A DNA stretch of 29,493 nt from a virus. Its lineage: Duplodnaviria; Heunggongvirae; Uroviricota; Caudoviricetes. The stretch is taken from positions 1 through 29,493 of IMG/VR virus record IMGVR_UViG_2537561932_000024. One strand, given 5' to 3'. Position 1 is the first letter of the stretch; each line of letters begins with the position of its first letter. Position numbers: made by a program. Below are positions 12,001 to 15,000 of the stretch, piece after piece.

Positions 12001-15000
12001 CTGATAGTAAACAATTCCGCCGAACTGCCCGTGCACGTTCACCTCAAAGTAACGGCATTCAGGCTTGTAGTCGTATCCATCACCGTTGTTGCTTCCAGCA
12101 ATAATGTCAGGGTGATTTCCTACTGCTTCTATCAGGTCGATGTTTCGCGTTGGTTTGAATGTAATCATCAGTCAATCAGCCCATGTAATCTAAGTGCCGT
12201 TTCAAGCGCCAGAATACGCTGCCGCGCCTGCTGCAAACCTGTAGCGAGAGATGCGACTTCGGATTGTGTGTACGTAGTGCCGACAGTGTATGACTGGTTA
12301 GCGTTGAATGAGCCAAGAAGTGGCGTACCTGTGGCTGCTGTCCACCCTGTCTGACGAGCACCAATAACCTTGGTGCCGCCGACCGAATAGGATGTTGTTA
12401 CATTGAGGGGAGATGCCAGCGATTGTGTTGCAGTGGCTGTTTTCGATACATAGTCGTCCTGTAATGCAGAAATGTTGCTCTCAGCAGTCGTAACCCGGCC
12501 ATCAAGAGCGCTGACGTCAGCCTGTAAAGTGACTATTTCTCCTTCAGCCGTGGTTAGTCTGACATCCAGCTCTGCAATTGCCGCAGTATTCGCAGCAATA
12601 CGGATTTCATGGTCATCTACTTCAATGCGGAGCTGACGAATTCTTTCTTCGTGATCGACCAGAATCACATCCTGCTCATCGTTCCTGACTTGTGCGTCAT
12701 AAGCGCCCTGTCCGGCCTCGTTGGCCTTGTTCGCCACGTTACCAACATCAGTACCCTGTGCGATAACGTACAACAGATACGACTGCGAGAAGATATTGCG
12801 TGGAAGGATTGATGTATCGAGCCGTGTAGCCTGAATGATTACCGGCACATTGAGATTCGAATCAGCCATTAACATGCCTCCATGCCTTGCCATTTACAAT
12901 TCTACTAACCTTTGAATTGTGAATTCCAAATAATTTAGCAACTTCACACTGAGGAAATCCATTGGCAACCATTTCTTTTATCTTTATGACATCATCATTA
13001 GATATTTTAGAATTACCATTCCTTTCTCCTTTTACATTACCTCTCGATTCCAATCCATATGAGTGTGAGATGTTTCCTGATGGAGTAACCCATTCAAGAT
13101 TTAGATAGTTATTATTATATTTATCACCATCTATATGATTAACCTGTAACCCTTCAGCAAATCCACCGACAAAGTGAGATGCAACAAGCTTATGTATTAG
13201 TATGTTCTTTTTTACGCCATCCTTATATAAGCACACATACTTATATCCATTTACGTTATGATTATGCTTCAGCCACCTCCCCTTAATAAGACGCCCCCTC
13301 AAATTTACTCTTGAATGCGAGTAAACTCTACCATCATTAGTGATGGCGTACAGTCCTTCATATCCTTCGATATCTTTTGCGTTTTCACTTAACATATCTA
13401 CTCCTTGAGTTTCGATTTATGTTACACGAATAGAAAGGCCTGATAATGTAACAGGACCTTTTGCAATAACTCTGAATTTAAATCCAATGAGACGTCTAAC
13501 TCGACCAACTTTTCGCCATAAAACGCGATTGTCATATACAAATGGTTTTTGTAATACGACCATTTGCTCACGACCGTAATTAATTCCATCTGTAGTGGCT
13601 GATATAAATATTCTATCTATTCTATCACACACGCCGCCAGATGTTTCTAATTCAAGGTCATTTATTAAAACGTTATCAGCCTTTATTAGAGGGGAATATA
13701 AAATATGCTCTTGTTGTTTTTCGTATTGTGAAGATATATCGAATTGCAATTTCCCGGTCACCGATTCCAGCTTATCGCCGCACGTTATCTGATTGCCTTC
13801 GTAAATGAAGTCGATAGCGCGGTACACATCGTCATACAGGCCAGTTTTCAACACACACCATTGCGGACCATTGGCGCTTGAAGATGCGTCGTACACCAGA
13901 ACATGGCGCGGAAGATGGATAATCAGCAGCTCATGCGCATCAAATCGCAGAGACTCCATCACGCCATCAGCCAGTTCATCAGCAGTGTAGGAGCGTAGTA
14001 TTTTCTCAATGCTCGCGCTGGCGATTGGTGATACCTGACCGGAGCCGATGATATACACAGACGGCGCACCTGTTGCCGGATTGCTGATAAACGCATAGGA
14101 ATCAGCGAATGGCGTTTTGCAGTAAGTCCCGGCAATGCCTTTCTGCACCATAAGAGATGGCTGTGCGACATACAAAGCAGCACCAACGGTGGTTGCACCA
14201 GTCAGGGAGAAATATTCAATCGTCGATGAACCAAAGCAGACGATGAAGTCTCGCCATGTTCCGATGCCGATGATGCCGTCAGGCTGCGATTCTGCGCGAT
14301 ATTGTGCGCTGTATCGGTCAGGGTGCGATTCGTCTTCAAGGTCAGTGATAAACCATGAATCAGTGCCGTCTTTTGACCACGCATAACGCCCACGTAAGCG
14401 CGTAATGTCACGAACCGAACCTAACTCATACTGAGTGAATCCGCTATCTGCAGGCCAGTTTGAGACGGTTTTAACCGTGCCATCATAGCGATACTCTACC
14501 AGTTGACCATTAACGCCTACAGCCTGAGATGTCCGACCATGCGCCATTGATACACGACCACTTCCGGCAACCTCACCGACTTCACTTTCTCCTTTGTACA
14601 GCTTGCCACCACACACACGATAAACAGCACTCTGCGCCATGTTGTACTCGACGCCGCGCGATACGCCGTTCACATCAGAACGTTTTGCAATGCCAGGGAA
14701 TGAGCGAAGATATCCGCTGCTGTTCAGGATTTCTTTGGGTGTAGCCAGCATATTCACTGGCAGATAGTCGATATAGTCGGCGTTTCGGAAATCTTTGCCG
14801 ACACCTTTCATAAGCGGAAGTTGCTGAACCGGCATTTATTCGCTCCCGTTATCGCAAGGTTCCTTCCGGTAGAAGTAATTCCAACCGTTCCACTTCGCCA
14901 ACTGATTACCGCTACCAACAGGCATACGGTTTGGATAACCGGACTTACATTTAGCGGCTTTTGCTCTGTCCATTGCAGACAGTTTGACGAGTCGCTCTTT

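Follow-up and report, generated by a model that had tools for sequence, protein, structure and literature searches.

A putative homing-endonuclease cassette at the gp10/gp26 junction of P22-like prophages

The window analysed here is the 29,493-nucleotide stretch of DNA in IMG/VR virus record IMGVR_UViG_2537561932_000024, which its gene content marks as a P22-like (Lederbergvirus-type) prophage of Escherichia coli. Between its genes for the tail hub protein gp10 and the tail needle gp26 lies an open reading frame (ORF) for a 177-amino-acid (aa) protein of the HNH endonuclease family. We consider it likely that this gene encodes an active, free-standing HNH homing endonuclease of the I-HmuI type, and that together with the 3' end of gp10 it makes up a selfish cassette of ~880 bp that is spread by intronless homing. 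The case is built on features observed directly here, namely the domain architecture and fold of the protein, its catalytic residues, the presence/absence polymorphism of the gene, its linkage to one type of gp10 tail, an island of sequence identity at the cassette, and purifying selection. A preliminary description of this DNA had placed the ORF between gp10 and gp26 homologues, and its assignment is borne out by the ORF, Pfam and PHROG analyses.

Empty and filled gp10/gp26 junctions

Comparison of the junction in related P22-like genomes, a check that the preliminary description had proposed, defined the empty site. In phages Dewey, IME10, HK620, CUS-3, Louie and P22, gp10 abuts gp26. The gp10 stop codon overlaps the gp26 ATG (TAATG) in the first five, and in P22 the two genes are separated by 3 nt. 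The filled site, with an HNH gene at exactly gp10/gp26, was found in phage HZ41 and in 52 E. coli genomes.

The E. coli survey covered 5,426 complete genomes, of which ~913-920 have a gp10/gp26 region. The AT-rich gp10 tail described below occurs in 52 of the ~920 (5.7%). For 49 of these 52, the match overlaps a gene annotated in RefSeq as "NUMOD4 domain-containing protein"; the remaining three have an IS3 or IS1 insertion sequence (IS) between gp10 and a still-present HNH gene. Searches with the HNH core recovered allele 1, that of the window (WP_000947776.1), from 36 genomes and allele 2, that of HZ41 (WP_021514124.1), from 16. Since 36 and 16 add up to the 52 tail carriers, tail and HNH gene are completely linked in both directions. 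Related phages are thus far from universal carriers: ~94% of the P22-like gp10-gp26 loci in E. coli lack the HNH gene, which therefore has no essential structural or packaging role. The preliminary view that such a gene is not a usual part of the P22-type operon holds to that extent, but the gene is no rarity, being annotated in RefSeq in dozens of E. coli genomes and having relatives at other junctions.

Two kinds of disturbed locus were seen in the survey. An IS3-family element truncates the 5' end of the HNH gene in ETEC6333 (L004, 1262-2490) and ETEC6334, and IS1A lies between gp10 and the HNH gene in M160133 (L005, 1788-2485); these elements have landed in a short AT-rich interval at the gp10/HNH boundary. 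K_EC180 (L011, 1693-4343) and ~20 swine enterotoxigenic E. coli (ETEC) or O139 genomes carry a degraded prophage remnant next to torI, in which gp10 and the HNH gene are intact and gp4, the small terminase gene and gp26 are truncated pseudogenes. This remnant has been sampled clonally, and hence the count of allele-1 carriers is inflated.

Low GC content is not confined to the HNH gene. The preliminary description had found the ORF markedly AT-rich relative to its neighbours, and its GC content is indeed 0.354, as against 0.51 for gp26 and for the first 1080 nt of gp10; however, the last ~320 nt of gp10 are not GC-normal either (0.36), and the low-GC tract runs from the HNH ORF through a 21-nt spacer into this part of gp10. 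Compared codon by codon with gp10 of Dewey, the window gene is 92-100% identical up to nt ~1080, and identity then falls abruptly to ~55% at the nucleotide level and 50-70% at the amino acid level until the stop codon. Overall, the AT-rich tail is ~61-65% identical to the usual tail in amino acid sequence. HZ41, which has an HNH gene at the same site, also has this AT-rich tail, at 95-100% identity to that of the window; it is the only one of 184 phage records with a gp10-tail homologue to do so, the others reaching at most 69% aa identity. The low GC content and the 55%-identical tail therefore delimit a foreign segment at ~12862-13735 (~880 bp). Judged from these alignments, the mobile unit is the C-terminal ~105 codons of gp10, the spacer and the HNH gene, and not the ORF alone. 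The preliminary description was right that the HNH gene is mobile, but its insertion has to be extended by the last ~320 nt of gp10. In the annotations listed, PGAP names the product of the usual allele "packaged DNA stabilization protein gp10" and that of the chimeric allele "packaged DNA stabilization protein"; the chimeric gene appears to lose the specific "gp10" name, and the product name appears to mark cassette carriers.

Evidence for mobility came from eight pairs of carrier genomes aligned around the HNH start codon. Over the cassette (~-340 to +500 relative to the HNH ATG), these pairs have 0-4 mismatches per 100 nt, as compared with 2-15 per 100 nt in the 5' part of gp10 and up to ~100 per 100 nt in gp26; in outline, the flanks of HNH carriers differ from one another by 5-50%. 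Genomes A39, from an Australian rodent, and MB53, from Cuban poultry, have no mismatch over 800 bp, and their gp10 5' parts differ by 6%. One and the same HNH protein accession adjoins differing gp10, gp4 and gp26 proteins, including needles of both the knob type and the P22 type. The left junction, where the AT-rich sequence starts, lies at gp10 nt 1101 in the window, O111 and K_EC180, at nt ~1122 in A39 and MB53, and at nt 1131 in HZ41, SMN013SH2 and SBF22. On the right side, variation among carriers returns within ~25 nt of the gp26 start. By its gp10 5' part, the window is as near to non-carriers (up to 96.4% identity) as to other carriers (95.3-95.7%). This is the pattern expected of a short cassette recently copied into diverged backbones, and the description of the HNH gene as a mobile accessory carried by the late operon of P22-type phages stands.

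Protein family, fold and expression signals

The HNH protein matches Pfam NUMOD4 (PF07463) with 49.5 bits (cut-off 23.4) and HNH_3 (PF13392) with 39.3 bits (cut-off 24.8); a C-terminal HTH_23 match of 18.6 bits is below its cut-off of 24.6. PHROG 59, "HNH endonuclease", matches at 2e-49. Among Protein Data Bank (PDB) sequences, phmmer aligned residues 7-174 with I-HmuI (1U3E) at 8.4e-21, the NUMOD4 region corresponding to I-HmuI residues 4-50. An AlphaFold model from an alignment of 35 homologues has a predicted local distance difference test (pLDDT) score of 90.3, with beta strands at residues 16-18, 24-26, 52-58 and 61-66 and C-terminal helices at 133-144, 149-156 and 160-167. Searched against the PDB with Foldseek, the model had only one match with E <= 0.001, again I-HmuI (1u3e_M; E = 1.7e-9, probability 1.00, template-modelling (TM) score 0.54); there were also weak local matches to helix-turn-helix domains of resolvases and IstA. 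Thus, the NUMOD4/HNH_3 assignment in the preliminary description is upheld, with Pfam scores above the cut-offs and I-HmuI as the only significant match among solved structures. PADLOC matched "homing endonuclease" models only, for which reason we rejected a role of the protein in a defence system, and NCBIfam has no specific model for it.

Far from being absent, the catalytic histidine and asparagine residues are invariant. His87, Asn99 and Asn108 align with I-HmuI His75, Asn87 and Asn96, and His68, Asn86, His87, Asn99, Asn108 and His111 are conserved in all of the 35 homologues (34-89% identity). The gene also appears to be maintained. Between the window and the O111 11128 copy of allele 1, there are seven synonymous differences and no non-synonymous difference, the proteins being identical; within allele 2, all pairwise differences are synonymous (up to 6 to 0). 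Of the copies inspected, only that of ETEC6333, disrupted by IS3, lacks an intact ORF. On these substitution counts, the HNH protein is under purifying selection.

I-HmuI of phage SPO1 and its relatives I-HmuII, I-BasI and I-TwoI have, like the window protein, an N-terminal DNA-binding NUMOD4 beta-sheet and an HNH beta-beta-alpha-metal nuclease motif, followed by a C-terminal helix-turn-helix that is probable in the window protein, and the match is full-length (177 aa in the window, 174 aa in I-HmuI). Sequence identity to I-HmuI is ~31-35%, with Asn86 where I-HmuI has Asp74. Whereas the gene for I-HmuI lies within a group I intron of a DNA polymerase gene, the window gene is free-standing between structural genes; positions 12000-15000 have no Rfam match to a group I intron or other structured RNA, and hence there is no such intron. 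A transposable element or IS was rejected as the source of the segment, as 12500-14100 contains neither direct nor inverted repeats and Pfam detects no transposase domain.

The HNH gene has a strong ribosome-binding site of its own, as the preliminary description had stated: AAGGAG at 13401-13406, within the spacer and 5 nt before the ATG. The true gp26 start is the ATG at 12867-12869, as judged by homology with needle genes annotated in related phages (MADSNLN...). A mechanical ORF list starts gp26 at 12893 (12168-12893, 241 aa); we rejected this start, since the extension falls inside the HNH gene. With the HNH stop codon at 12862-12864, the last 8 nt of the HNH ORF are the first 8 nt of gp26, which confirms the overlap first reported. 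In carriers, the HNH ORF runs past the gp26 ATG to a TGA that is out of frame within gp26 codon 3. The 13 nt that precede the gp26 ATG, TGGAGGCATGTTA, put GGAGG (12877-12881, inside the HNH 3' end) 7 nt upstream, where empty sites have AGGA. Because the HNH 3' end thus supplies a ribosome-binding site at the spacing of the empty site, gp26 translation is kept intact by the insertion. On the coding strand near the HNH gene, we detected no sigma-70-like promoter and no terminator; hence, the gene is probably transcribed as part of the late transcript.

Allelic series, spread and alternative explanations

We determined the genomic context of relatives from protein-database and contig look-ups, and calculated global identities to the window protein. 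Diverged HNH proteins are encoded at the gp10/gp26 site in Citrobacter (L016, 89%), in metagenomic sequences (L017, 62%; L018, 54%; L026/L027, 52%; L025, 51%) and in Providencia rettgeri (L023, 48%), in each case between gp10 and gp26 of P22-like prophages. The presence of diverged alleles at this site in several genera indicates that the association is old and recurrent. A scan of species-representative genomes with the HNH protein found no relative except an irrelevant archaeal fragment. The N-terminal ~30 residues are common to all alleles and the cores differ; a C-terminal ...KAWRHVNG is common to most, with L025 and Providencia departing at the C-terminus. Recombination between allele-2-like and allele-1-like sequences has produced the Citrobacter allele. 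In L018, a gp10 tail 96% identical to that of the window stands beside an HNH protein only 54% identical, and therefore HNH cores are exchanged within the cassette and do not diverge in place. A parallel is the replacement of mobC/mobE by SegH/Hef in T4-like phages (cited in PMC2988022).

Composition bears on the origin of the cassette. In all backbones of high GC content (0.50-0.57 in the 5' part of gp10), the GC content of the tail drops to 0.36-0.42. GC content at the Providencia locus is a uniform 0.43-0.44 with no step, and the gp10 tail there belongs to the HNH-linked type, with 71% aa identity to that of the window, as against 61% for that of Dewey. This loosely suggests an origin in a low-GC lineage; Providencia as the direct donor was rejected, its tail being only 71% aa identical. 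The gp10 protein of the P. rettgeri prophage (L023/L024, 1680-3473) has 597 aa compared with 472, the extra ~125 residues lying outside the conserved tail.

Free-standing endonucleases make their cut some way off from the gene that encodes them, with co-conversion of flanking markers (PMC2988022; PMC2790892), and the HNH enzymes MobA, MobE and I-HmuI nick one strand (PMC2988022). Like the T-even enzymes MobA, MobE and SegA-G (PMC2988022, PMC2790892), the window gene is intergenic, probably expressed with its neighbours, and polymorphic for presence and absence. In both cases a flank hitch-hikes, the carrier allele is unlike the presumed target, and one endonuclease replaces another at one locus. 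In contrast to the T-even case, the host is a temperate P22-like podovirus or prophage and not a virulent T4-like phage, and the flank is a 55%-identical replacement of the C-terminus of a structural protein and not a few point differences. The domain arrangement of the Mob proteins is also unlike that of the window protein, for which we infer homing. A further comparison is with the I-HmuI-like HNH genes of Skunavirus (PMC12724721), which, like the window gene, are free-standing and have variable but recurrent insertion sites; their alleles cluster by insertion location, and they have been proposed as drivers of mosaicism and marker exclusion (PMC12724721). These lactococcal phages are a different group with different hosts, and marker exclusion was demonstrated by experiment there (PMC12724721).

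HNH genes also occur elsewhere in P22-like or related genomes. In Salmonella phage UPF_BP1 (L003, 5036-5620), an HNH gene of the NUMOD4/HNH_3 family lies between gp4 and a shortened gp10, and in N7 (L013, 2001-2522) and 29485 (L014, 1407-1925) between the Q-antiterminator region and the lysis genes. These proteins are 43-48% identical to that of the window and have the N-terminus MLSE.AKDI.G.EG.Y..T.DGRVYSHSRV in common with it. SEN22 has an HNH gene between terminase and portal (PMC5261728), and epsilon34 has one as a gene 31 fusion (PMC2629481). In all five genomes the sites differ from gp10/gp26, and for none has a linked replacement of the end of a neighbouring structural gene been reported.

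We propose that the cassette would spread as follows. The late-operon transcript would include the HNH gene, and ribosomes would start on it at its own AAGGAG; the enzyme would appear late in an infection or once the prophage has been induced. The 3' end of the gene would supply the ribosome-binding site and start context of gp26, keeping the essential needle gene coupled. When a phage or prophage that carries the cassette shares a cell with an empty-site P22-like genome, the enzyme would recognise a long site in the empty allele, located either in the ordinary 3' end of gp10 or where gp10 meets gp26, and may nick one strand only, by analogy with I-HmuI, MobA and MobE. Recombinational repair would use the carrier genome as template. 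Because the two gp10 tails are only 55% identical, resolution would be forced into the nearest stretches of homology, which are in gp10 before nt ~1100-1131 and right at the gp26 start, and the whole cassette would be copied. The carrier would be immune, since its gp10 tail is diverged, or recoded, and its junction split. Empty-site alleles have invariant stretches at gp10 nt ~1267-1286 (GTGA[G/A]CAGATGATTGAGCAGAA) and nt ~1233-1260 that carry many changes in cassette alleles; we regard these as candidate targets, not as evidence.

Several points weigh against spread by homing. Cleavage, the target site, preferential inheritance and the homing event itself are all inferred. The metal ligand Asp74 of I-HmuI is replaced by Asn86, although an asparagine that is invariant across the family is probably functional in this position. 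Many of the 52 carriers are clonal (swine ETEC and O111 Shiga toxin-producing E. coli), and independent events must number far fewer than 52. The cassette occupies only ~6% of loci, so that any drive it has through homing is not overwhelming in nature. We found no near-isogenic filled/empty partner for the window prophage, the best matches to its gp10 5' part reaching ~96% identity with or without HNH. Hence, of the recent mobile insertion in the preliminary description, the mobility stands but the recency cannot be demonstrated for the window genome. Moreover, an identity island with fixed junctions would also be expected from ordinary homologous recombination under some other selective advantage.

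This last point leads to what we consider the strongest, though still improbable, alternative: that gp10 tail and HNH gene form a passive mosaic module moved only by ordinary homologous recombination, a frequent process in this group, and that the HNH gene is retained because it is useful in some other way. Its product might, for example, cut the DNA of rival phages, giving interference or marker exclusion but no self-propagation, or serve as a regulator that binds DNA. In favour of this alternative, the genomes of P22-like phages are strongly mosaic, with ready recombination between phage and resident prophage (PMC10307801), the junctions sit simply where homology resumes, occupancy is only ~6%, and purifying selection proves a function but not which one. 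Yet the identity island coincides exactly with the HNH cassette in 8 of 8 pairs, so that its ends are not random; over its whole length the protein is related to a proven homing enzyme, it has every catalytic residue, and in PADLOC it resembles nothing but homing endonucleases; and the gp10/gp26 site holds many diverged HNH alleles and nothing else. Some copies do lie in degraded prophage remnants or have IS elements next to or inside them, as a functionless relic of an old insertion might, but decay of this kind is unlikely given the single disrupted ORF (ETEC6333) among the copies inspected, the exclusively synonymous differences within each allele, the invariant catalytic residues and the occurrence of identical proteins in divergent backbones.

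We give least credence to a domesticated morphogenesis or packaging factor, comparable to the HNH proteins that aid terminase in HK97-like cos phages, or to a partner of the variant gp10 tail. The position in the virion assembly operon and the strict linkage to a structural-protein domain variant would fit such a role. However, ~94% of otherwise very similar P22-like loci, including those of P22, HK620 and CUS-3, do without the gene, which lies ~7 kb from the terminase genes of the gp3/gp2 system and belongs to the I-HmuI-like NUMOD4/HNH_3 family and not to the small terminase-associated HNH proteins. P22-type phages package by a headful (pac) mechanism. Cores of 48-62% identity have been swapped beside gp10 tails that are 96-98% identical, which argues against co-adaptation. 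A terminase-associated HNH protein like HK97 gp74 was specifically rejected on the grounds that the gene is not adjacent to terminase, is not group-wide and falls in the NUMOD4/HNH_3 Pfam families.

More tentatively, the homing reading can be widened. It is possible, though we would call it doubtful, that the HNH gene is the engine by which P22-like phages of different genera exchange the last ~105 residues of the tail hub gp10, creating a fixed mosaic boundary in an essential virion gene, and that the at least seven diverged cores (44-89% identity) arose by repeated endonuclease replacement in a specificity arms race with resistant target alleles.

Gene neighbourhood and implications

The tested region is 100% identical to the chromosomes of E. 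coli strains 503440 and 503829. The window encodes an integrase, an O-antigen acyltransferase, a tailspike with a P22 head-binding domain, gp16/gp20/gp7/gp14, gp26, gp10, gp4, coat, scaffold, portal, terminase gp2/gp3, lysis genes and Q. Both neighbours of the HNH gene, gp10 upstream and gp26 downstream, are full length (Table 1). A second accessory gene of the late operon is an ORF of ~196 aa (15314-15904, minus strand) with a Pfam WDGH domain (E = 1.3e-39) and no NCBIfam match, placed between the coat gene and gp4, where Dewey and HZ41 have only ~184 nt. Three further ORFs have no Pfam match at E <= 0.01: 7068-7517 (plus strand, 149 aa), 7793-9658 (minus strand), which by its position should be a gp16-type ejection protein, and 24173-24649 (minus strand), which by its position should be an endolysin.

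Table 1. Features of the cassette and its surroundings in the window
Feature	Position	Strand	Remarks
gp26 tail-needle gene (right homology arm)	12168..12869	-	233 aa; PHROG 1219, E = 1e-124
HNH homing-endonuclease gene (putative)	12862..13395	-	177 aa, ATG start; protein identical to RefSeq WP_000947776.1
Helix-turn-helix (probable)	~12892-12984	-	aa ~138-168
HNH_3	~13072-13197	-	aa 67-108; Pfam PF13392
Catalytic His87 codon	13135-13137	-	Alignment with I-HmuI
NUMOD4	~13225-13377	-	aa 7-57; Pfam PF07463
Spacer, gp10 stop to HNH start	13396..13416	-	21 nt; kept in all alleles at the gp10/gp26 site
AT-rich gp10 3' end (left part of cassette)	13417..13735	-	~codons 367-472; GC 0.36
gp10 (tail hub/head-closure protein)	13417-14835	-	472 aa; Pfam Phage_stabilise, E = 1.5e-282
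gp10 5' 1100 nt (left homology arm)	13736..14835	-	GC 0.51; 92-98% identical to alleles without HNH
Terminase genes gp3/gp2	20337-22308		

HNH homing-endonuclease genes are common passengers of phages, and that of the window, already annotated generically in RefSeq, is otherwise an ordinary, fairly typical selfish phage gene. In the P22-like phage literature, we found no description of the HNH site at gp10/gp26, the linked replacement of the gp10 tail or the allelic series, although a prior description in work on P22-like virion-gene mosaicism is possible. The HNH gene overlaps gp26 and supplies its ribosome-binding site, and hence should not be removed carelessly in phage engineering.

If homing does account for the cassette, the P22/HK620 group would offer a clean natural case of a homing endonuclease dragging along part of an essential structural gene, and one sharp mosaic boundary inside gp10 would be explained. 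Direct tests of homing, co-conversion and interference would be easy in E. coli or Salmonella, given a cassette of ~880 bp, two E. coli alleles plus distant ones, and natural empty-site partners in HK620, CUS-3, the BASEL phages Dewey, Huey and Louie, and P22. Should the HNH gene also prove to be the engine of gp10 exchange between genera, it would provide, in a temperate phage that is easy to handle genetically, a tractable model of structural-gene mosaicism driven by a homing endonuclease.

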